Part shown: one piece after another, positions 5,362-13,215 of the stretch
Position numbering within the stretch: the first letter of the stretch is position 1
Layout of the letters: each line of letters begins with the position of its first letter
From: a virus
UHGV virus genome: UHGV-0054899
DNA length: 15,014 nucleotides
Reading direction: 5' to 3' (one strand)
Program-made: the position numbers and the translations under genes
The notes under the pieces: generated by a model
What the model was told of the DNA's origin: nothing
What the model saw: the letters and a program-made list of their open reading frames with translations, nothing else
The model's database searches: none

Positions 5362-5384
5362 GATATCTGCAATAAATTGCAATG

Positions 5385-5410
5385 GCCGCCGACTATGGCG
5401 GCTTTGTTTT
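5385..5410 (+). terminator. Rho-independent terminator candidate upstream of the terminase operon
   Basis: GCCGCC-GACTAT-GGCGGC (6-bp GC stem) followed by TTTGTTTT. It lies inside the track's 5382 N-terminal extension, which argues against that start. Confidence 0.55.
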
Positions 5411-5421
5411 GCGTGTTACTA

Positions 5422-5454
5422 TTACCAAAACGGTAATTATTACTTCGGTGGTAA
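5422..5454. promoter_or_regulatory. two adjacent inverted-repeat sites TTACC-N5-GGTAA (5422-5436 perfect; 5440-5454 TTACT-N5-GGTAA), candidate operator or activator site for the late operon
   Basis: Read directly, immediately upstream of the terminase small subunit start. An identical perfect site is at 8655-8669. Confidence 0.4.
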
Positions 5455-5456
5455 CA

Positions 5457-6050
5457 ATGCCCGCAGAACCAAAAGCACCAAAACGCAAATCAACGCAGTA
5501 CAAGCCACTCACAGCGATGCAGGAGGCTTATGCACAGGAATATACCAAATGCCCTGAGAATCAGACTCAGGCGGCGATTAACGCAGGATTCTCGCCTAAT
5601 CCGGCGGCTGTCAAAGCCAGCGTCATGATGCGTGATGAGCGTATCCAGAAACGGATCGCCGAACTGATGGAAGAGCGCAACAAGCGCCTGCGCGTCAGTG
5701 CTGATTATGTGCTGCTCCGTTTGGTGGAAATTGACCAGATGGATGTGATCGATATCCTCAACGACGACGGCACACTGAAGCCGATCCGCGAGTGGCCGAA
5801 GATATGGCGTACCACGCTGAGCGGTTTCGACCTTTCATCGACCATCATGAACATGGACGAGACATCAATCGAGACGATCCTCAAAAAAATCAAATGGCCT
5901 GACAAGGTGAAGAATCTCGAGCTCATCGGCAAGCACGTCGACGTCAACGCGTTCAAAGAGCGCCTGGAGGTTTCAGGCACTGTCACCATTGCCGACCGCA
6001 TGGCGAAGGCTCGCCGTCGCGTGAAAGAGCAGGCTGGTGGTGAAGAATGA
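5457..6050 (+). CDS. terminase small subunit
   Basis: ATG at 5457 after GGTGG. N-terminal region (…LTAMQEAYAQEYTK…NQTQAAINAGFSPNPAAVKASVMMRDERIQKRIAEL…) is typical of terminase small subunits. Stop overlaps the large subunit start (ATGA). Confidence 0.8.
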   Translation: MPAEPKAPKRKSTQYKPLTAMQEAYAQEYTKCPENQTQAAINAGFSPNPAAVKASVMMRDERIQKRIAELMEERNKRLRVSADYVLLRLVEIDQMDVIDILNDDGTLKPIREWPKIWRTTLSGFDLSSTIMNMDETSIETILKKIKWPDKVKNLELIGKHVDVNAFKERLEVSGTVTIADRMAKARRRVKEQAGGEE

Positions 6051-7528
6051 CAGCCGCATCCATGTCGCCGGAAGAACAACTCGTCGAGGATATCGCTGGG
6101 TTCACGTATGACCCGCTTGGCTATTCTCTGTATGCGTTCCCGTGGGGAGAAGAGGGAACGGAGCTGGCGCATGCCACTGGGCCGCGTAAATGGCAGGCCG
6201 ACGCATTCCGCGAGATACGCGATCACCTCCAGAACCCCGTTACCCGCCATCAACCGCTGATGCTGGCGCGCGCATCCGGTCACGGCATCGGTAAATCCGC
6301 TTTCATATCGATGCTGATTAACTGGGGCATGTCCACCTGCGAGGATTGCAAGGTGGTGGTGACCGCCAATACCGACAACCAGCTGCGTACCAAGACATGG
6401 CCGGAAATCATCAAATGGTCCAACCTGGCTATCACCAAAGAGTGGTTCACCTGCACCGCCACCGCGATGTACAGCAACGATCCCGGACACGATAAACGCT
6501 GGCGCGCTGACGCCATTCCGTGGTCTGAGCACAACACCGAGGCATTCGCAGGGCTGCATAACGAGCGTAAGCGCATTATCGTGGTGTTCGACGAAGCGTC
6601 CAACATTGCCGATCTGGTATGGGAGGTTGCCGAGGGTGCGCTGACGGACGAGGACACTGAAATCATCTGGGTGGCGTTCGGGAACCCAACGCGCAACACC
6701 GGGCGTTTCCGCGAATGCTTTCGCAAATACAAGCACCGCTGGAAGTGCGCGCAGATTGACAGTCGCACCGTTGAAGGCACCAACAAGCAGCAGTTGCAGA
6801 AATGGGTGGACGACTACGGAGAGGACAGCGACTTCGTGAAGGTCCGTGTGCGCGGGATCTTCCCTGATGCGTCTGAGAACCAGTTTATCCCATCAGGCCT
6901 GACACAGCCTGCCGTGGGCAGGGTTATCACTCCGGCGCAGGTCCAGCACGCTGCTGTAGTTCTTGGCGTCGACCCGTCTCACCAGGGTAAAGACCCGGCA
7001 GTTATCTACCTTAGGCAAGGGCTGCACTGTAAGAAACTTGGCGAGTGGCAACGAACTACCGACGACGTATTGTTTGCTAAGGTGATTGCCGACTTTGAAG
7101 ACCAGTACCAGGCCGATGCTGTGTTTATCGATTACGGGTACGGGACCGGGCTTAAATCAGTTGGCGATAACTGGGGCCGTAACTGGACCCTGATTCAGTT
7201 CGGCAGCGGTACGGCAGATCCAGAGATGGGCAATAAACGCGGTGAGATGTACAAATCAGCCCGCGATGCGCTGAAGCTTGGGGCGCAACTCGACAGCCAG
7301 AACCTTGCCGATGAGCTGAGTGCGCCGGAGTACAAGGTCAGGCTGAAGGACAGCAGGAAGATTTTGCAGGACAAGGAAGAAGTCAAAGAGTTGCTTGGCA
7401 GATCCCCGAACGATGCCGACGCATACGTGCTGACATATGCCGCTCCTGTGACCAAAAAGCAATTCAACTATGGGCAGCAGCAGAGCCAGCATGGCAAGGC
7501 TCTCACAGAGTACGATCCCTATGCATGA
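6047..7528 (+). CDS. terminase large subunit
   Basis: 493 aa, translationally coupled to the small subunit. Walker A-like SGHGIGKS, Walker B-like IIVVFDEAS, and a C-terminal nuclease-type region (…VLGVDPS…). Confidence 0.9.
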   Translation: MTAASMSPEEQLVEDIAGFTYDPLGYSLYAFPWGEEGTELAHATGPRKWQADAFREIRDHLQNPVTRHQPLMLARASGHGIGKSAFISMLINWGMSTCEDCKVVVTANTDNQLRTKTWPEIIKWSNLAITKEWFTCTATAMYSNDPGHDKRWRADAIPWSEHNTEAFAGLHNERKRIIVVFDEASNIADLVWEVAEGALTDEDTEIIWVAFGNPTRNTGRFRECFRKYKHRWKCAQIDSRTVEGTNKQQLQKWVDDYGEDSDFVKVRVRGIFPDASENQFIPSGLTQPAVGRVITPAQVQHAAVVLGVDPSHQGKDPAVIYLRQGLHCKKLGEWQRTTDDVLFAKVIADFEDQYQADAVFIDYGYGTGLKSVGDNWGRNWTLIQFGSGTADPEMGNKRGEMYKSARDALKLGAQLDSQNLADELSAPEYKVRLKDSRKILQDKEEVKELLGRSPNDADAYVLTYAAPVTKKQFNYGQQQSQHGKALTEYDPYA

Positions 7529-7551
7529 AAAAGCCCGCGCATCGACGGGCT
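7527..7551 (-). terminator. Rho-independent terminator for the minus-strand accessory gene
   Basis: Stem AGCCCG / CGGGCT with an 8-nt loop; on the minus strand it is followed by UUUUU (the + strand AAAAA at 7527-7531). On the + strand there is no T-run after it. Confidence 0.5.
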
Positions 7552-7555
7552 GATT

Positions 7556-7567
7556 GTGACATGTCAC
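7556..7567. repeat. perfect 12-bp palindrome GTGACATGTCAC (copy 2; 14 bp TGTGACATGTCACA at 7555-7568)
   Basis: Read directly; lies between the minus-gene stop (7572-7574) and its terminator, and just after the terminase large subunit stop. Confidence 0.8.
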
Positions 7568-7571
7568 AGCG

Positions 7572-7991
7572 TTACTTAATGGCATCAAATCCAGCGTTGA
7601 TGGCTTCCGCAATATTGGTGGCATTGGTTTTATCGAATTGTCCATTCTGAATAAGTGCCGCATGCAGACATTGTAACTTCATGTTGTATAAGTGTTCGCT
7701 CATGTAATCATCATCACTTTTTTCTTTAGCATAAACAGCGCGAGAAATATCAAACACATTGCCTTTTTCCATTTCAGAACGTTGTGCCGCTATCCAGTCA
7801 TAGCACGTAACGCTAGTGCCATGGTCTTCGCTAAGAGTTAACCCGGCCAGTTTCTCACCCTGAATTACTTCGTAATGCATTTCATTGCCAGCAAAAACGC
7901 CATAAAAAATGCAGTCATCAGCCTGAACGATACGGGAATATTTTAATGGCCATTCATTTAGATACTTAGCCAACATATCAACTGTTTTCAT
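7572..7991 (-). CDS. hypothetical acidic protein of unknown function (139 aa), accessory 'moron' gene
   Basis: Only credible minus-strand gene in the window. Strong Shine-Dalgarno AAGGTGAG ahead of the ATG, own downstream terminator, and visibly lower GC than the flanks. No motif I recognise. Confidence 0.75.
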   Translation of the reverse strand: MKTVDMLAKYLNEWPLKYSRIVQADDCIFYGVFAGNEMHYEVIQGEKLAGLTLSEDHGTSVTCYDWIAAQRSEMEKGNVFDISRAVYAKEKSDDDYMSEHLYNMKLQCLHAALIQNGQFDKTNATNIAEAINAGFDAIK

Positions 7992-8002
7992 AGTCTCACC
8001 TT

Positions 8003-8026
8003 AAAAAAATGCCCACCGAAGTGGGC
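8003..8026 (-). terminator. intrinsic terminator or attenuator hairpin directly upstream of the accessory gene's ribosome-binding site
   Basis: On the minus strand: GCCCAC-UUCG-GUGGGC, then A, then UUUUUUU, running straight into AAGGTGAGACT-ATG. Confidence 0.55.
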
Positions 8027-8654
8027 GAACTGGAAGCAAGGGAGCCTTCCATGGCTTACGGGTTTACAACACAACGTCATCACAATGGCGTTCTGGTGTA
8101 AAAGTGACGGTGGTCAGCATCAAGGGAAACTGCCACCGCCAAAGGCTACACAGCATCGTTCTTATGGGCGCTTCATCACGGTCCTAAGGCGTGATTGGGT
8201 TGTGGTGGCCGGTGCTGAACTCCGGCTTGGCTATGCGACTTGCTAGTTGACACCGGAGTTTCACCGGGGCGAAGGTTTCGCAAATCGTTTATTGGGTCAG
8301 TGCTGGCTTGCAACGCGCTTACTCAACCGACTACAGCCAACGATATCTACTACCCATCAGGTCTTACACTTGCGCATCAGCCTGCGCATTCACCACAACG
8401 GAAAGAGCACTGGCTAACCAGGCTTCACCGACTCCTCACGATTATCGGTTCAGTGCTCTTACCTGTTGCATCCTCGTCTCTTCCGAGGTGTCACACCGTA
8501 TCGCCACGATGGTGAATCGTCTGTCCGTGCTTACCTAACACTGGCTTGCACATTCCGGCTACCCGGCTGGGGAAGTAGCATCAAGGGAACCCATCCGGAC
8601 CGCTGCGGCACATGTGCCATATGCCGTACATCCACTGCGTCACATCAACACCAA
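8027..8654 (-). ncRNA. candidate structured noncoding RNA or long regulatory leader (identity unknown)
   Basis: About 630 bp with no minus-strand ORF of 60 aa or more; the + strand carries only three mutually overlapping ORFs in all three frames with non-protein-like composition. Ends at a minus-strand terminator. Contains GC-rich hairpins, a 12-bp palindrome GGCACATGTGCC (8607-8618) and dispersed short repeats. Strand and function are inferred only. Confidence 0.25.
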
Positions 8655-8669
8655 TTACCTAAAAGGTAA
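8655..8669. promoter_or_regulatory. inverted-repeat site TTACC-TAAAA-GGTAA (third copy of the motif) in an AT-rich putative promoter region
   Basis: Read directly, in the AT-rich stretch 8650-8750 upstream of the structural operon. A TTGACA hexamer sits on the minus strand at 8691-8686. Confidence 0.4.
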
Positions 8670-8759
8670 TATCTGATGTTATAAGTGTCAATAGCCTACG
8701 CTAAATAAATCATATGTGGTTAAATTGGTAATAATTTAATTGCGTACGGAGCTATTGCT

Positions 8760-8966
8760 ATGTGTATCGGCAGCAAGCCATCAGTGCCAGCAGCGCCAGA
8801 AGTACAGGCTGCGCCACAGGAGCAGGATGCAGCAGTCGTCAGTTCTCGTGACGACGAAGAGCGCCGCCGACGTGCAGCAGCAGGCCGCAGTTCCACTCTG
8901 CTGACTGGTGCGCAGGGTGACACATCAACCGCAAACACCAGCGGTAAAACGCTGCTTGGTCAGTAA
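8760..8966 (+). CDS. small protein beginning MCIGSKP…, possible virion protein (T7 gp6.7-like by recollection)
   Basis: ATG at 8760 with GGAG 8 nt upstream; 68 aa, Ala/Pro/charged-rich. Resemblance to T7 gp6.7 (N-terminal MC-x-S-P-K, small size, position ahead of the portal gene) is from memory and weak. Confidence 0.45.
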   Translation: MCIGSKPSVPAAPEVQAAPQEQDAAVVSSRDDEERRRRAAAGRSSTLLTGAQGDTSTANTSGKTLLGQ

Positions 8967-8980
8967 CGGAGTAGGCAGAG

Positions 8981-10651
8981 ATGGCGGAAACCGAAAAAGA
9001 GCGCCTGCTGAAGCAGCTAGCACAGCTGAAGAATGAGCGCACATCGTTCGAATCGCACTGGCGTGATCTGAGTGACTTCATCAATCCGCGCGGTTCCCGC
9101 TTTCTGACGTCTGATGTAAACCGTGATGATCGTCGTAACACTAAGATTGTTGATCCTACCGGCTCAATGGCTCAGCGCATTCTGTCCAGTGGCATGATGT
9201 CAGGCATCACCAGCCCGGCACGTCCGTGGTTCAAACTGGCAACGCCTGACCCTGACATGATGGACTATGGCCCGGTGAAAATCTGGCTGGAAGTCGTGCA
9301 GCGCCGTATGAACGAAGTGTTCAACAAGTCTAACCTGTATCAGTCACTTCCTGTTATGTACGCAAGCCTGGGTACTTTCGGCACCGGCGCTATGGCTGTT
9401 CTGGAAGATGACCAGGACGTGATCCGTACAATGCCTTTCCCTATTGGCAGTTACTATCTGGCAAACAGTCCGCGCGGTAGCGTTGACACCTGCATTCGTC
9501 AGTTCTCCATGACTGTGCGCCAGATGGTGCAGGAATTCGGGCTGGATAACGTCAGTACATCCGTAAAAGGCATGTTGGAAAACGGCACGTATGAAACGTG
9601 GGTGGAGGTTAACCACTGCATCACGCCTAACGTCAACCGCGACAGCGGGAAGATGGACAGCAAGAATAAGCCTTACCGCTCTGTCTATTTCGAAACTGGC
9701 GGTGACGCTGACAAGCTGCTGCGTGAATCCGGTTTCGATGAATTCCCAATCCTGGCTCCGCGCTGGGAAGTGAACGGTGAAGACGTTTACGCCTCATCTT
9801 GCCCTGGTATGTTGGCACTCGGTCAGGTTAAAGCCCTTCAGGTTGAGCAGAAGCGCAAAGCTCAGCTTATCGATAAAGCCACTAACCCGCCGATGGTTGC
9901 CCCGACATCGCTCAAGAATCAGCGTGTTTCCCTGTTGCCTGGCGATGTGACATATCTCGACGTGTTGACCGGTCAGGATGGTTTCAAACCTGCATACCTG
10001 GTTAACCCGAATACTGCCGACCTGCTGGCTGACATTCAGGATACCCGCCAGACCATCAACAGCGCCTACTTCGTTGACCTCTTCATGATGCTGCAAAACA
10101 TCAACACTCGCTCTATGCCGGTGGAAGCGGTGATCGAGATGAAGGAAGAGAAACTGCTGATGCTTGGCCCGGTGCTTGAGCGACTGAATGACGAAGCGCT
10201 TAACCCGCTTATCGATCGCGTGTTCTCAATCATGGCCCGCAAGAACATGTTGCCTGAACCGCCAGACGTTCTTCAGGGTATGCCGCTGCGTATCGAGTAC
10301 ATCTCTGTGATGGCTCAGGCGCAGAAATCTATCGGCCTCACCAGCCTGTCGCAGACAGTTAGCTTTATCGGGCAACTGGCACAGTTCAAACCTGAAGCGC
10401 TCGACAAGCTCGACGTTGATCAGGCTATCGACGCGTTCTCTGAAATGTCAGGCGTATCGCCAACCGTCATCGTTCCGCAAGAGCAGGTACAAGGTATTCG
10501 TGAAGATCGCGCGAAACAGGCTCAGGCAGCACAGGCAATGGCTATGGGTCAGGCGGCAGCGCAGGGAGCCAAGACTCTCAGCGAAACGCAGACCAGCGAC
10601 CCGAGCGCATTAACCGCTATCGCTAATGCAGCAGGAGCACCGCAGCAATGA
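8981..10651 (+). CDS. portal (head-to-tail connector) protein
   Basis: 556 aa, first large gene after terminase. C-terminal Q/A/M-rich tail (…AQAAQAMAMGQAAAQGA…) resembles T7 gp8-type connectors as I recall them. Confidence 0.75.
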   Translation: MAETEKERLLKQLAQLKNERTSFESHWRDLSDFINPRGSRFLTSDVNRDDRRNTKIVDPTGSMAQRILSSGMMSGITSPARPWFKLATPDPDMMDYGPVKIWLEVVQRRMNEVFNKSNLYQSLPVMYASLGTFGTGAMAVLEDDQDVIRTMPFPIGSYYLANSPRGSVDTCIRQFSMTVRQMVQEFGLDNVSTSVKGMLENGTYETWVEVNHCITPNVNRDSGKMDSKNKPYRSVYFETGGDADKLLRESGFDEFPILAPRWEVNGEDVYASSCPGMLALGQVKALQVEQKRKAQLIDKATNPPMVAPTSLKNQRVSLLPGDVTYLDVLTGQDGFKPAYLVNPNTADLLADIQDTRQTINSAYFVDLFMMLQNINTRSMPVEAVIEMKEEKLLMLGPVLERLNDEALNPLIDRVFSIMARKNMLPEPPDVLQGMPLRIEYISVMAQAQKSIGLTSLSQTVSFIGQLAQFKPEALDKLDVDQAIDAFSEMSGVSPTVIVPQEQVQGIREDRAKQAQAAQAMAMGQAAAQGAKTLSETQTSDPSALTAIANAAGAPQQ

Positions 10652-10947
10652 TGGATATCGACGACGAAGGCCGCAAAACAGAGCTTGACGCCAAACAGCA
10701 ACTTCTGGCTCAGCGCGATATCGACGACATCAAGTTCGTTATGGGTAGCGAGCAAGGCCGCCGTGTTGTCTGGTCAATTCTGGAGAGGGGAAAGGTGTTC
10801 TCACCATGCTTCGCCGGTGATTCGCACTTAACCGCATTCAACGAGGGGCAGCGCAACATGGCACTGGCATTGTTTCAGCGCGTCATGGCGCACTGTCCTG
10901 AACAGTATCTGAAAATGGCCGCTGAGTCTCAGGAGAAAGACAAATGA
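10648..10947 (+). CDS. hypothetical head-morphogenesis-region protein
   Basis: ATG overlapping the portal stop, AGGAG upstream; 99 aa. Confidence 0.55.
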   Translation: MMDIDDEGRKTELDAKQQLLAQRDIDDIKFVMGSEQGRRVVWSILERGKVFSPCFAGDSHLTAFNEGQRNMALALFQRVMAHCPEQYLKMAAESQEKDK

Positions 10948-11489
10948 TCCGTAAACGCATGATCAGACTGAGAAACGACGGTAATTCGACTATTGCAGAT
11001 TTCTATGCAGTGGATGAAGAGCCGCAGACATTTCAGATGGACATATTTAACTGGACCGGATCTCAGGTTGTGGCTGATGCCGCTTTCCAGAACTTCTTTT
11101 CACTTTCAGGGATCGTTAAAGCTGCTGACGGTAACGCGAATCTCAGCATCAATTCGGGAAATCTTATATTCCCTGCTCAGGAAGCGCCGAGCCAGGTTCT
11201 TTTCAGTACCCGTATTAACGGTACCGTTGGTGGTGCGTCAGGAACGGCAAGGGAATGGATGATTCAGACCAGGCGCCCAAATGGCGACATAGTCGGATCC
11301 GAGTCAAGCGTGAAGGTGAACGGAACCAGCATCAGTAACCGTGACGATGTACTTGCCAGTTTCACCATGAATGAACTTGATCCGTTCACCGTCAGCGGAA
11401 TTCAGGTCGGCCTTTCAAATGAATCAGGCCAGACCATCACGTTGACCTCTGTATCTGTCAGGGTTCAACGCGTCATCAGCATTGATTAA
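10944..11489 (+). CDS. hypothetical structural-module protein (beta-rich)
   Basis: ATG at 10944 with AGGAG 8 nt upstream, ATGA overlap with the upstream stop; 181 aa rich in G/S/T/N/V. Confidence 0.55.
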   Translation: MIRKRMIRLRNDGNSTIADFYAVDEEPQTFQMDIFNWTGSQVVADAAFQNFFSLSGIVKAADGNANLSINSGNLIFPAQEAPSQVLFSTRINGTVGGASGTAREWMIQTRRPNGDIVGSESSVKVNGTSISNRDDVLASFTMNELDPFTVSGIQVGLSNESGQTITLTSVSVRVQRVISID

Positions 11490-11503
11490 CAAGAAGGTAA
11501 CGT

Positions 11504-12214
11504 ATGAATTTATTTGATCGTTTGCTGCATCGCCGTCTTTGCAATGAGCAACCTGCTGATGGTGGCGCAGCTCCTGCTGCATCTGAACCCGCAGCATCAA
11601 CTGGTGATAATCCGGCACCCGCTGGCGATCCGGCTAAACCAGAAGGCGATAAGCCACAACCTGGCACTGAATCCGACAAACCTCAGGAAGAAAAACCTGC
11701 TGATGGTGATAAGCCAGAAGATAAAAAGCCTGGTGAAGACAAAGAGCAGAAGCAGGAAGGTGCGCCGGAGAAATACGAGTTCAAACCAGCTGAAGGTCAG
11801 GAACTTGATGCTGCCGCTCTGGAGCAGTTCGAGCCTATCGCCCGCGAACTGAACCTGACTAATGAGCAGGCGCAGAAGATGGTCGATCTGTACGGCACCA
11901 AGATTATGCCAATGGTCCAGCAGCAGCAGGCGGAAGCCTGGCAGAAAACCACCGAACAGTGGGCTGCTGACGTTAAGGCGGACAAGGAAATCGGCGGAGA
12001 CAATCTCACCGGTAACCTGAGCGCGGCACAGCGTGCTCTTGCTCAGTTCGGCACACCTGAACTGAAAGAATATCTGGAAGGCACCGGCCTGGGTAATCAC
12101 CCTGAGCTGGTTAAAGCCTTCATAAAAGTCGGTAAGGCCATGTCAGAAGACGGCATGGTAACCGGGAAAGAAAGCGGTCAGCGTAGTGCTGCCGAAGTGC
12201 TCTATGGCAAATAA
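11504..12214 (+). CDS. scaffolding protein (putative)
   Basis: ATG at 11504 with AAGAAGGT upstream. N-terminal Pro/Glu/Lys/Asp-rich low-complexity region followed by a helical C-terminal part, immediately ahead of the putative capsid gene. Confidence 0.55.
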   Translation: MNLFDRLLHRRLCNEQPADGGAAPAASEPAASTGDNPAPAGDPAKPEGDKPQPGTESDKPQEEKPADGDKPEDKKPGEDKEQKQEGAPEKYEFKPAEGQELDAAALEQFEPIARELNLTNEQAQKMVDLYGTKIMPMVQQQQAEAWQKTTEQWAADVKADKEIGGDNLTGNLSAAQRALAQFGTPELKEYLEGTGLGNHPELVKAFIKVGKAMSEDGMVTGKESGQRSAAEVLYGK

Positions 12215-12228
12215 GAGAGGAAATAACC

Positions 12229-13215
12229 ATGGCTGTTAAAGGCTTAACTGCGCTGACGCTGGCAGACTGGGGTAAGCGCGTAGATCCTAATGGGAAAATC
12301 GATAAAATTACCGAGCTTCTCAGTCAAACGAATCCGATTCTGGAAGACATGCTGATTGTTGAAGGAAACCTTCCAACTGGACACCGCACTACCATTCGCA
12401 CTGGCTTACCGGATGCCACTTGGCGACTGCTGAACTACGGCGTGCTAAACAGCAAGAGCACCACTGCACAGGTAACGGATTCCATTGGTATGCTGGAAAC
12501 TTATGCCGAGATTGATAAATCTCTGGCAGACCTGAACGGGAACACCTCTGAATTCCGTCTGTCTGAAGACCGGGCATTCCTTGAGGCAATGAACCAGAAG
12601 ATGGCTCAGACCCTGTTCTACGGTGATACCAGCGTTAACCCACAGCAGTTTATGGGACTGGCATCTCGTTATTCCAGCAAGTCAGCCGGTAATGGTCAGA
12701 ACATTATCGACGCTGGCGGCACTGGCACCGATAACACCTCTATCTGGCTGGTTGTGTGGGGTGAAAACACCGTTCACGGCATCTTCCCTAAAGGTCAAAA
12801 GGCAGGCCTGCATATGGAAGACAAAGGTCAGCAAACTCTGAAAGACTCCGCTGGTGGTCAGTATGAAGGCTATCGCACCCACTATAAGTGGGATAACGGC
12901 CTGACCCTTCGTGACTGGCGCTATGTTGTTCGCATCGCGAACATCGATGTAAGCGATCTGTCTGTTCCAGCCTCTGCTGCAAACATCGTCACCCAGATGG
13001 TTAAAGCGCTGCACCGAGTTCCTAACCTGAAAATGGGGCGTGCTGTTTTCTACATGAACCGCACCGTTGCTCAGGCTCTCGACCTGCAATCTCTGGATAA
13101 AGCCTCTCTGGCTCTGTCCGTCAAAGAGACAGAAGGCGAATGGTGGACCACTTTCCGTGGCATTCCGATCCGTGAAACCGATGCGATTCTGGAAACAGAA
13201 GCGCGCGTTGTTTAA
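12229..13215 (+). CDS. major capsid protein (putative)
   Basis: 328 aa with strong AGAGGAAATAACC-ATG initiation region, directly downstream of the scaffold-like gene. Assignment rests on position and size, not a recognised motif; it does not resemble T7 gp10 or lambda gpE as I recall them. Confidence 0.5.
   Translation: MAVKGLTALTLADWGKRVDPNGKIDKITELLSQTNPILEDMLIVEGNLPTGHRTTIRTGLPDATWRLLNYGVLNSKSTTAQVTDSIGMLETYAEIDKSLADLNGNTSEFRLSEDRAFLEAMNQKMAQTLFYGDTSVNPQQFMGLASRYSSKSAGNGQNIIDAGGTGTDNTSIWLVVWGENTVHGIFPKGQKAGLHMEDKGQQTLKDSAGGQYEGYRTHYKWDNGLTLRDWRYVVRIANIDVSDLSVPASAANIVTQMVKALHRVPNLKMGRAVFYMNRTVAQALDLQSLDKASLALSVKETEGEWWTTFRGIPIRETDAILETEARVV

Follow-up and report, generated by a model that had tools for sequence, protein, structure and literature searches.

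A conserved leftward accessory arm in an epsilon15-like phage genome carries a predicted tRNA-shaped scaffold RNA with a variable insert

We analyzed a 15,014-nt stretch of the virus genome UHGV-0054899 (the window) and found that positions 7529-8760, which lie between the genes for the terminase large subunit (TerL) and the portal protein, form a leftward (minus-strand) accessory arm; the arm is a conserved part of this epsilon15-like (Uetakevirus) genome and not an insertion. It contains a tRNA-shaped RNA element whose scaffold defines a large family located where temperate enterobacterial phages have their tRNA slots. We infer the expression, processing, and function of this RNA, and we put the probability of the conserved arm, the tRNA-derived scaffold RNA in a tRNA slot, and the scheme of transcription, processing, and effector action outlined below, taken jointly, at roughly 0.6.

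The terminase-portal gap could be aligned end to end among seven relatives, and the variable parts of the alignment were the open reading frame (ORF), the cassette, and the insert of a stalk that we designate P0. The same layout was also seen in Cronobacter, in the Enterobacter phage Tyrion, and in one Klebsiella phage. Structured RNA elements span approximately 650 nt of the interval in an arrangement resembling a minus-strand tRNA operon: leader hairpins, the P0 stalk with its variable apical insert, a single cassette position, trailer hairpins, and two terminators (Table 1).

Table 1. Features of the leftward arm; promoter, terminator, and RNA features are predictions, and positions are those of the window
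Feature	Position	Strand	Remarks
Divergent control region	8650..8760		First 110 nt of the ORF-less part; nearly invariant in the alignment of the epsilon15-like relatives examined
Candidate promoter	-35, 8691-8686; -10, 8668-8663	-	TTGACA, 17-nt spacer, weak TACCTT
Palindrome ATTACCTTTTAGGTAAT	8670-8654		Annotated as repressor and IHF sites in the epsilon15 record
Module A	8571..8652	-	Long imperfect leader hairpin; holds copy 1 of the TTCCCTTGATGCT repeat (8589-8577)
Leader hairpin	8472..8488	-	CCUCG-GAAGAGA-CGAGG
P0 stalk	8396..8469	-	Helix of ~19 bp, immediately 5' of G1
P0 5' arm	8469-8451	-	
P0 variable insert	8450-8413	-	
P0 3' arm	8412-8396	-	
tRNA-shaped scaffold RNA	8201..8396	-	196 nt; same register as the sister tRNA-Arg(UCU)
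Scaffold 5' arm	8396-8372	-	7-nt acceptor-like strand from G1, AU, and a hairpin in the D-arm position (4-bp stem, 8-nt loop)
Scaffold variable insert (cargo)	8371-8227	-	145 nt, structured; replaces the anticodon arm
Scaffold 3' arm	8226-8201	-	T-arm-like GCCGG-AGUUCAGCA-CCGGC, acceptor 3' strand CACCAC, then A
Trailer (module B)	8030..8195	-	
Trailer hairpin	8195-8175	-	AUCACG..CGUGAU
Terminator-like trailer hairpin	8140-8098	-	Carries copy 2 of the 13-nt repeat TTCCCTTGATGCT (8128-8116)
Further trailer hairpins	8092-8073 and 8054-8030	-	
Intrinsic terminator	8003..8030	-	GCCCACUUCGGUGGGC then U7; predicted end of the noncoding unit
Shine-Dalgarno AAGGTGAG	7995..8002	-	Directly abuts the U-tract of the upstream terminator
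139-aa ORF	7572..7991	-	Low-GC swappable accessory gene, phrog_4846
Intrinsic terminator 3' of the 139-aa ORF	7532..7551	-	Stem AGCCCG...CGGGCT, then UUUUU

The initial annotation had described the interval as about 1.2 kb of foreign-looking DNA, with one minus-strand gene and 630 bp of spacer. Its account of the gene has stood: the 139-aa ORF is the only minus-strand ORF that is not antisense inside a plus-strand gene, its Shine-Dalgarno sequence and its downstream intrinsic terminator were both recovered (Table 1), and its GC and GC3 values (0.400/0.379) are lower than those of TerL (0.567/0.688) and the portal gene (0.539/0.619). The ORF listing also contains no credible ORF between 7992 and 8759, as had been stated. 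The suggestion that the gene is accessory cargo agrees with its deviant composition and with the different genes found in the same slot of sister phages. However, the foreign-looking part amounts to only ~0.46 kb (7529-7994), and the ORF-less remainder has a GC content of 0.540, which is close to that of the backbone, and occurs in every epsilon15-like relative examined. An insertion into the terminase-portal junction had been proposed, but in none of the relatives examined does the structural operon follow terminase directly; the same divergent arm separates the two in all of them. The supposedly inert 630 bp are a conserved structured-RNA locus that aligns across all epsilon15-like relatives examined. 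Conservation of both gene and spacer, with backbone-like composition, had been named in advance as evidence against an insertion, and this pattern was found for the spacer and not for the gene.

The slot of the 139-aa gene is filled by at least five unrelated genes among the relatives. Its occupants in sister phages include a 121-aa gene in epsilon15, a 168-aa gene in SPN9TCW, and a 110-aa gene in E. coli BCE049, in addition to 201-aa or 123-aa relatives that have a C-terminal module alone in common; the 139-aa family occupies only 2 of the approximately 20 TerL/portal-slot loci among the matches listed. The junction between the terminator and the Shine-Dalgarno sequence is kept in sister phages even where the ORF differs. 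The protein is modular, a C-terminal helical module being combined with two alternative N-terminal domains, and its AlphaFold model is mediocre (mean pLDDT of 68), with confidence only in the C-terminal helical hairpin. An exhaustive profile search identified 37 representatives of the family among 1.84 billion protein clusters, and the family is restricted to Enterobacteriaceae prophages; the nine representatives scanned, which were the longer ones, contained no Pfam domain. That the protein could not be assigned to a family is still true of the Pfam, PADLOC, and PDB profile searches and of the fold search, none of which produced a match; it no longer holds for PHROGs, which assigns the protein to phrog_4846 only, a family of unknown function. 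The PADLOC defence models returned only a chance-level match to a Cas3 fragment (E = 0.02, 11 bits). We found no linkage between the protein family and the type of RNA cassette.

These data bear on the reading in which ~1.2 kb of foreign DNA at the terminase-portal junction delivers a 139-aa defence, exclusion, conversion, or anti-defence protein beside a non-functional 630-bp spacer. The composition of the ORF (GC 0.40, GC3 0.38), its own terminator, its variation among relatives, the tiny family confined to Enterobacteriaceae prophages, and the joining of two N-terminal domains to one C-terminal module, a pattern common in conflict genes, all speak for it. However, we consider it unlikely, since the ORF-less part has backbone GC and a position kept in all relatives, terminase never abuts the structural operon in them, the helices of the ORF-less part covary, and searches with the protein gave no match to a defence or anti-defence model, a family, or a fold; the spacer half of this reading is already refuted. 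The 139-aa gene resembles phage morons in its deviant GC, its own terminator, and its presence/absence variation among close relatives; unlike morons, it has no visible promoter of its own and its slot is fixed across the genus.

The tRNA-like nature of the cassette was indicated by the sister phages, in which the cassette position is occupied by tRNA-Arg(UCU); in ETEC H10407, SPN9TCW, TB4019, EC0026B, and HEMP4, this tRNA gene lies on the minus strand. The scaffold starts at the same G1. The trailer is also in register with that of the sister tRNA, and the exact tRNA trailer ACCAGAATCACGCC is kept in some copies. In the acceptor-like stem, GUGGUG(A) pairs with (C/U)CACCAC, and its six pairs were 99.7% paired across 60 elements. 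Hence the scaffold has the 7-bp acceptor stem of a canonical tRNA, with its 5' end in the tRNA register, and it has a D arm of the canonical kind (a stem of 3-4 bp and a GG-containing loop, beginning two nucleotides after the acceptor strand), which reads AU followed by GCGC-AGGCUGAU-GCGC (98.8% paired) and in which one compensatory variant, GCAC/GUGU, was found. The 5' half of the scaffold joined to a true T arm was called as a tRNA by ARAGORN at default settings. With the T-like arm of the window (CCGG-AGUUCAGCA-CCGG), the loop of which differs from the canonical UUCRANY, the chimera was called only at the relaxed threshold of 90%; with the majority variant AGAUCAGCA it was never called, and with the UUC-containing variant GUUCAGCU it was called at default settings.

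The remaining features of a canonical tRNA are missing from the element. There is no anticodon arm (5-bp stem and 7-nt loop), and the insert found there is 145 nt long in the window and 26-170 nt long elsewhere. An encoded 3' CCA following the discriminator base is not conserved: the window reads A-ACC-C, and the next bases in the family are CCA, ACC, CAC, CAU, and others. ARAGORN, run with or without introns, detected no tRNA on the element; the calls that it made with relaxed scores and introns allowed were all implausible. The Rfam tRNA model had no match at E values up to 10. When the insert was used as a BLAST query on phages and E. coli genomes, only the shared arms were matched, and no complement to the P0-scaffold RNA longer than 10 nt (chance level) was present elsewhere in the window; these searches yielded neither a target nor a partner for any insert. 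One segment of the window's insert type can pair with the T-like arm instead. Two other contigs carry the same insert type, with differences that compensate one another in the helices, suggesting that the insert is under selection.

The P0 stalk, which covaries across phages, also precedes tRNA-Arg in the sister phages. Its arms pair more stably with their cognate partners (mean, -15.7 kcal/mol) than with non-cognate ones (-8.0 kcal/mol). The P0 inserts form 55 clusters among 95, and 10 of the 95 contain canonical T-arm hairpins, compared with 0.8 expected by shuffling (both among the matches listed). The central GUUGUG can pair with either the upstream or the downstream CACAAC, which makes the exact junction between the two helices ambiguous, and the unit is flanked by CACAAC direct repeats. 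The CCUCG-GAAGAGA-CGAGG leader hairpin recurs 5' of P0 in many phages, with compensatory variants.

To quantify covariation, we used a set of 60 distinct elements, related to one another in sequence, from which the inserts had been excised. Paired cells accounted for 85.9% of the total versus 82.5% in shuffles, and 70 cells had changes on both sides of a pair versus 33 in shuffles; the observed value was reached by 0 of 500 shuffles in each comparison, although such controls overstate significance because the sequences share kinship. Sliding the partners by 1-3 columns reduced pairing to 34-49%. Changes on both sides were seen in 9 of the 15 P0 pairs and 3 of the 5 T-like pairs; the 5' strands of the acceptor-like and D-like stems are fixed by the search pattern, so the support for these two stems consists of G-U pairs and a few compensatory variants. 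The minimum-energy folds of 79 unique elements contained the closing stem in all 79 cases and the D-like and T-like hairpins in 69 cases each.

Several observations point to the minus strand. At one P0 position, most sequences (44/60) have a U-G pair, which would be an A-C mismatch on the other strand; the two predicted terminators act only on the minus strand; and all 14 tRNAs near 128 elements share the strand of the element. We also weighed a cis-acting role on the plus strand, in which the region would serve as a structured 5' leader or processing site of the gp3-portal structural mRNA and the minus strand would be irrelevant. The plus strand folds well too (z = -3.5), the late transcript must traverse the region to reach the portal gene, and annotated sites for RNase III, IHF, and repressor lie in the gap of the epsilon15 record. 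This role is nevertheless very improbable, because only the minus strand has the tRNA, the terminators, and the G-U pairs and because the element in lambdoid phages is co-oriented with its operon, in tRNA slots. The lambdoid co-orientation also indicates that the antisense arrangement in Uetakevirus is not the defining trait of the element.

The scaffold was found in at least 120 IMG/VR contigs as two constant arms around a highly variable insert; the inserts of 79 unique elements fall into at least 50 clusters. At least 29 copies lie in the Q-holin interval, where they are co-oriented with the late operon; among the matches listed, about 20 occupy the TerL/portal slot and 12 are located just 3' of a cI-like repressor gene. 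The Q-holin site is a known tRNA-gene site of P22-like phages (PMC8022706). A query with the cassette detected homology in 335 of 5,426 complete E. coli genomes, most of these matches covering only the 5' end of the cassette (the P0 3' arm and the scaffold 5' arm), and it also matched phages of Klebsiella, Salmonella, Enterobacter, Erwinia, Cronobacter, and Shigella. Cultivable carriers include HK629, mEp460, IME10, and the Bas77-80 phages. Some records place hypothetical proteins over the element, for example, mEp460_037.

A search of the window with Rfam 15 gave no match at the gathering score and only chance-level matches at E values up to 10 (RyhB, DicF, Trp leader, rsmX, and a group II intron fragment). 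In 20 further loci, neither the scaffold nor the insert was matched by any of these models, which did detect C4, isrJ, isrK, and tRNA elsewhere in those loci. Our search of the full-text literature, with the arm sequences included, found no description of the scaffold RNA. The prophage Pas sRNAs are a different family. We considered and rejected a group I intron in a tRNA, which does not fit inserts that are too small, that lack flanking anticodon-stem halves, and that have no Rfam intron match. We likewise rejected a retron, bridge RNA, or guide RNA, since none of the three slots has a linked gene for a reverse transcriptase, recombinase, or nuclease.

The distribution of the family allows two further explanations to be judged. 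The scaffold and P0 could be the pseudogene debris of a decaying tRNA array, their arms being shared through recent common ancestry and homologous recombination at linkers and not through selection on an RNA. T-arm hairpin remnants inside P0 inserts, the degenerate T-like loop, and the unconserved CCA would fit such decay, as would epsilon15, in which the whole cassette is deleted between the two 13-nt repeats and the phage is viable. Against it, the arms have stayed whole although they enclose at least 50 unrelated inserts and occur in three genomic slots and in several host genera, compensatory changes maintain the helices, the insert does not invade the closing stem in any of the 79 folds, and different contigs share conserved insert types that show compensatory changes; we regard decay as quite unlikely. 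The second explanation operates at the DNA level, with the stems acting as folded single-stranded recombination sites resembling integron attC sites, at whose tips cassettes are exchanged. The variable inserts do lie exactly at the apices of two conserved helices, the CACAAC direct repeats flank the unit, and protein-coding genes replace part of the element in some loci (for example, L016 and L088). However, none of the three slots has an integrase or another recombinase linked to the element, the co-orientation with tRNAs and terminators is that expected of a transcript, and the scaffold 5' half passes the tRNA test, which together leave this explanation with very little likelihood.

We favor the reading of the element as a transcribed, tRNA-derived scaffold RNA. 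A promoter in the invariant control region would give rise to a single transcript of ~650 nt; the candidate site in Table 1 is weak by consensus and the promoter scan made no call there. The tRNA-like ends and the stalk would recruit host tRNA and rRNA processing enzymes, RNase P would cut at G1 (8396), the stalk and trailer would be cut by RNase III or RNase E, and excision would leave a stable small RNA in which the insert is the effector. Constant arms, putatively for processing, around highly variable inserts suggest that specificity is located in the inserts. The terminator at 8030-8003 is the predicted end of this putative minus-strand noncoding transcription unit. It lies directly 5' of the ribosome-binding site of the ORF and had been overlooked in the initial annotation. 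We found no promoter-like site for the 139-aa gene, and the upstream terminator (8003) touches the ribosome-binding site (8002), leaving no space for a promoter; this abutment suggests that the gene is probably expressed by read-through of the terminator from the RNA unit.

Because the inserts turn over, the RNAs may take part in conflict between phage and host or between phages, where they could be decoys or regulators. More broadly, the covarying stalk and tRNA-shaped frame that temperate enterobacterial phages have in their tRNA slots might be a plug-in chassis that expresses, processes, and stabilizes a rapidly exchanged library of small structured RNAs (at least 50 insert types in about 120 contigs). 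These would be the RNA counterpart of protein morons and would serve in conflict, for example, as decoys for tRNA-targeting defences or as regulators, a proposal that is tentative and that we think more likely to be wrong than right. tRNA-cleaving defences such as Septu and OLD are reported (PMC13096335; bioRxiv 10.64898/2026.07.10.737580). A link between the scaffold RNA and tRNA-centered conflict would be of interest in this respect. AGA codons are almost absent from the structural genes of the phage, which calls into question the usual codon-supplementation explanation for the tRNA-Arg(UCU) of the sister phages. Phage annotation treats ORF-less gaps as spacer, and this creates a blind spot. 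If our reading is true, RNA makes up a common class of phage accessory cargo, and the family is a widespread and hitherto undescribed one. tRNA scaffolds are used for recombinant RNA expression in E. coli, and the scaffold RNA would be a natural analogue of this laboratory trick.

Among known systems, phage tRNA genes share genomic slots, strand logic, and the flanking stalk and trailer with the scaffold; the lambdoid tRNAs compared were those at the 5' end of the late operon, namely, Asn and Leu in phage L and Asn and Thr in Sf6 (PMC8022706). The scaffold starts at the same G1 as the epsilon15-like tRNA-Arg(UCU) and has a 7-bp acceptor-like stem and a D-arm-like hairpin. Unlike phage tRNAs, it has no anticodon arm, a non-canonical T loop, and no conserved CCA, and it is undetected by ARAGORN and by the Rfam tRNA model. 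YrlA is likewise a noncoding RNA with D-arm-, T-arm-, and acceptor-like elements that are derived from or mimic tRNA (PMC4201824), and a 7-bp acceptor stem is the main determinant of RNase P cleavage (cited in PMC4201824). The Ro60-binding stem of YrlA occupies the anticodon position and is made by the 5' and 3' ends of the RNA; the tRNA-like domain is distal, a loop closes its acceptor stem, and the gene is located beside rsr (PMC4201824). In contrast, the ends of the scaffold form the acceptor-like stem, and the records read show no annotated rsr gene next to the element. The scaffold also has no Rfam match.

The scaffold resembles tmRNA in that its ends consist of an acceptor-like stem and an adjacent T-arm-like hairpin around a large structured insert. 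A G3-U70 pair defines alanine identity; the acceptor-like stem of the scaffold instead has G3-C70, the third acceptor pair being G-C in 60 of 60 elements. The inserts are mutually unrelated and thus share no common tag reading frame, unlike tmRNA, and the tmRNA search of ARAGORN was negative both for the window and for the gap excised from it. Finally, the scaffold may be likened to the C4 antisense RNA of P1 and P7 (RF01695) and to the T4 stable RNAs, species 1 and 2, although the RF01695 model matches a real C4 in one locus (L080) and nothing in the window or in any scaffold. C4 and the T4 species are small phage RNAs that are matured by the tRNA-processing machinery and encoded in or near tRNA or immunity regions, and c4 has a constant frame with specificity-determining loops.

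The window belongs to an epsilon15-like (Uetakevirus) phage or prophage. By megablast, the gap between the gene for the terminase large subunit (TerL) and a gp3-like gene (7529-8760) matched epsilon15, SPN1S, SPN9TCW, Tyrion and prophages in 714 of 5,426 complete E. coli genomes, and none of the matched records reached 80% query coverage. The order terminase, minus-strand gene, 490-870 bp without genes, gp3 and portal was found in epsilon15, SPN9TCW, ETEC H10407, MARGA_3, TB4019, EC0026B and HEMP4, and likewise in a Klebsiella phage, Tyrion and a Cronobacter prophage. The initial annotation had taken the gap for a 1.2-kb insertion at the terminase-portal junction; since all relatives examined carry a minus-strand gene and a gene-free stretch between terminase and gp3, the slot itself is fixed rather than inserted. 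The gp3-like protein (phrog_831; N-terminus MCIGSKPS; rich in Ala, Gln and Arg), which has no assigned function, sits ahead of the portal in all relatives.

Features in and around the gap between TerL and the gp3-like gene
Feature	Position	Strand	Remarks
Terminase small subunit	5382-6050		
TerL	6047-7528		Followed by the gap
Terminator downstream of 139-aa ORF	7551-7532	minus	
139-aa ORF	7572-7991	minus	ORF scan
Ribosome-binding site (RBS) of 139-aa ORF	8002-7995	minus	
Second terminator	8030-8003	minus	Directly upstream of the ORF's RBS
Trailer	8195-8030	minus	Hairpins and a terminator-like hairpin; second terminator next
P0, long stalk	8469-8396	minus	Cassette position next
Small hairpin	8488-8472	minus	
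Leader with long hairpin	8652-8571	minus	
Control region	8760-8650	minus	110 nt, almost invariant; first in minus-strand order
gp3-like gene	8760-8966		68 aa; between gap and portal
Portal	8981-10651		PF12236, E = 3e-188

The minus-strand ORF, its RBS and its downstream terminator were all found as initially annotated, and the GC content of the ORF (0.400; GC3, 0.379) was indeed lower than that of TerL (0.567; 0.688) and portal (0.539; 0.619). The foreign look claimed for the whole 1.2 kb therefore held for the ORF but not for the ORF-less remainder, whose GC content (0.540) is backbone-like. TB4019 and EC0026B carry a gene of the same 139-aa family in this slot, H10407 and MARGA_3 a 201-aa form extended at the C-terminus, and Tyrion and the Cronobacter prophage a 123-aa protein with only the C-terminal 50 residues in common; the genes of epsilon15 (121 aa), SPN9TCW (168 aa) and BCE049 (110 aa) are unrelated. 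Because the terminator and RBS junction GGGCATTTTTTTAAGGTGAGA is kept ahead of all these differing genes in the alignment, the 139-aa gene is an exchangeable cassette, and its slot is fixed. Its product was assigned to phrog_4846, annotated as of unknown function, and had no Pfam, PADLOC or PDB-profile match; in the AlphaFold model (mean pLDDT 68), confidence was confined to a helical hairpin at the C-terminus (residues 93-137). When 1.84 billion cluster representatives were searched exhaustively with a profile, 37 relatives emerged, and none of the nine scanned (the longer ones) had a Pfam domain. Overall, the 139-aa protein looks like an ordinary moron, one of unknown function.

The ORF-less part, which the initial annotation had dismissed, proved the more interesting part of the gap, being structured and laid out like a tRNA operon. 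The initial annotation was partly confirmed and its reading partly supported: it was sound on the gene and its status as accessory cargo but not on the extent of 1.2 kb, the insertion or the empty spacer. The anatomy in the table was read from a seven-way alignment of the gap, from which the noncoding part is organised like a minus-strand tRNA operon; the position of the second terminator implies that something on the minus strand ends there. A minus-strand tRNA-Arg(UCU), preceded by the same P0, lies within the gap of H10407, SPN9TCW, TB4019, EC0026B and HEMP4. In the window, 196 nt (8396-8201) take its place in exactly the same register, with GTT upstream, G1 as first base and the trailer AATCACGCC all preserved; MARGA_3 has another non-tRNA sequence there, unlike that of the window. 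The 13-nt direct repeat TTCCCTTGATGCT (8589-8577 and 8128-8116) brackets P0 and the cassette region, and epsilon15, which lacks this whole region, seems to have lost it by deletion from one copy to the other. Codon supplementation for the structural genes seems an unlikely reason for the sisters' tRNA-Arg(UCU), because AGA is almost absent from them (0-1 codons per gene in the terminase, portal and capsid-region genes among window ORFs 5382-13215). The minus strand of the trailer gave weak, sub-threshold Rfam matches to RyhB (8003-8058, 19.5 bits) and DicF (8105-8154, 16 bits); its last ~60 nt resemble a terminator-bearing sRNA and might constitute a separate small RNA.

The sequence replacing the tRNA is a tRNA-shaped frame, here called the scaffold, around a foreign insert. 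Its 5' arm, GUGGUGA, AU, GCGC-AGGCUGAU-GCGC, corresponds to seven acceptor-like bases, two bases and a 4-bp stem with an 8-nt loop at the D-arm position, and its 3' arm, GCCGG-AGUUCAGCA-CCGGC, CACCAC, A, to a hairpin at the T-arm position, the acceptor 3' strand and a discriminator; between them lies a 145-nt insert. In a BLAST search of the segment, the two arms alone matched other phages and 335 E. coli genomes, and the insert matched neither other phages nor E. coli genomes. An exact-pattern scan of IMG/VR found the 5' arm at at least 120 loci; among the matches listed, there were at least 79 unique elements of 83-229 nt, with middles forming at least 50 unrelated clusters. The insert type of the window recurred in only two further contigs among these matches (L090 and L106), with compensatory changes such as AUUUG/CAAGU to ACCUG/CAGGU. 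One segment of the window's insert (8227-8371), CCGGUGAAACUCCGGUG, is nearly reverse-complementary to the T-like arm (8201-8226, minus strand); RNAalifold paired the two for this insert type and left the T-like hairpin unformed, so an alternative fold is possible.

P0, directly 5' of G1, is built as another such frame: CACAAC-A-GGUAAGAGCAYUG, a 35-90-nt insert, and CAGUGCUCUUUCC-GUUGUG. It has many fully compensatory variants (for example, GGGAUUGCAUUG/CAGUGCAAUCC, AUAAUUGCAUUG/CAGUGCAAUUAU, UAACGACGCUUC/GAGCGUCGUUA and GGUAGCUCACUUG/CGAGUGAGCUAC), and its inserts formed 55 clusters in 95 unique sequences among the matches listed. Canonical T-arm hairpins (GGTTCGAATCC-like) occurred in 10 of the 95 inserts, against 0.8 expected from shuffling. 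The majority 3' arm (8396-8412, minus strand) contains UGCUCUUU, identical to the opening 8 nt of the rrn boxA antitermination motif; it lies inside a stable helix, is lost in compensatory variants and may be a coincidence.

We aligned 60 distinct elements with both inserts excised and each replaced by GAAA. In the four-helix structure (P0, acceptor-like, D-like and T-like), 85.9% of cells were paired compared with 82.5% after shuffling (0 of 500 shuffles reached the observed value; the sequences are related), and pairing fell to 34-49% when the partners were shifted by 1-3 columns. Double-sided changes were seen in 70 cells versus 33 in shuffles (0 of 500, again among related sequences) and affected nine of 15 P0 pairs and three of five T-like pairs; the acceptor-like and D-like helices, whose 5' strands were fixed by the search pattern, had only G-U and a few compensatory variants. 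Independently of alignment, cognate P0 arms paired at a mean of -15.7 kcal/mol and non-cognate arms at -8.0. Minimum-energy folds of the 79 unique elements contained the closing stem in 79 and each small hairpin in 69, and the inserts therefore fold on their own. A covariance model from the alignment detected the element in the window, mEp460, HK629, IME10 (two tandem copies), a Klebsiella phage, Tyrion, BCE049, Kp4882-1 and the Cronobacter prophage, with no match in the tRNA-carrying sisters, epsilon15 or MARGA_3.

All evidence on the strand points to the minus strand. The sisters' tRNA has this orientation; 14 of 14 tRNAs near 128 elements were co-oriented with the element among the matches listed; both terminators of the gap are predicted to function only on this strand; and U-G pairs, which are frequent, would turn into A-C mismatches if the other strand were read. 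Stable folds form on the plus strand too, which the complement of a structured sequence is expected to show.

Tested as chimeras with the anticodon arm of a sister tRNA-Arg in ARAGORN, both the scaffold 5' half with a true T arm and the chimera with the GUUCAGCU T-like variant were called tRNA at default settings, the window's T-like variant only at the 90% threshold, and the majority variant AGAUCAGCA never. Because of these mixed outcomes and the absence of a conserved CCA across the extracted elements, the frame appears tRNA-derived in geometry, yet not a tRNA.

Neighbour probes sorted 121 IMG/VR elements among the matches listed: at least 29 were located between holin and the late-gene activator Q, reading in the direction of the late operon; about 20 occupied the TerL/portal slot, on the strand opposite the structural genes; and 12 lay directly downstream of a cI-like repressor, in its orientation; the few probes left 59 unplaced. 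Only two of the ~20 TerL/portal loci carried the 139-aa family, and RNA and protein cassettes therefore assort independently. In Kp4882-1, the element lies directly 3' of tRNA-Thr and tRNA-Arg(UCU). Two scaffold copies with differing inserts were seen in IME10 (L014, 1456-1585 and 1616-1745, in tandem) and in L125 (2.7 kb apart). At four loci (L016, L088, L107 and L109), a protein-coding gene that brings its own GGAGG RBS truncates the element within the insert; RNA and protein cassettes appear interchangeable at this spot. Matches to isrJ, a Salmonella island sRNA family, exceeded the gathering threshold in L037 (3055-3131) and L047 (1163-1236); they lie 100-290 nt upstream of the element on the same strand and end at a terminator just before the CACAAC of P0. 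Hypothetical proteins annotated over the scaffold or P0 on either strand in deposited records (mEp460, 1955-2323; L009, 2105-2356; L010, 1940-2101) are probably spurious.

Anatomy, conservation, covariation, strand and cassette exchange are matters of observation; production of the RNA would begin at a candidate promoter, TTGACA-17 nt-TACCTT (8691-8663, minus strand), which is weak, received no call in a promoter scan and overlaps a palindrome annotated as a repressor site in the epsilon15 record. RNase P would then excise at G1; a passage of PMC4201824 cites a 7-bp acceptor stem as the main determinant of its cleavage. For phage tRNAs in the late-operon slot, a passage of PMC8022706 states that excision from the late mRNA is not known. 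The stalk and trailer would be cut by RNase III or RNase E, leaving a stable small RNA with the insert as effector, and the 139-aa gene may be expressed by terminator read-through. Inserts turn over rapidly while the arms around them stay constant, which suggests a role related to conflict; a complementarity search within the window found no insert target.

The element had no match in Rfam 15, and we found no description of it in the literature searched, arm sequences included. It occupies the same slots as phage tRNA genes and, like tmRNA, encloses a large insert in a tRNA-like domain; YrlA is a tRNA mimic, but of different topology. The c4 and T4 stable RNAs are also among the closest analogues. 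Because the element fails the defining tests of phage tRNA, tmRNA, YrlA and c4, it stands apart as new among tRNA-derived RNAs, a member of none of the families compared.
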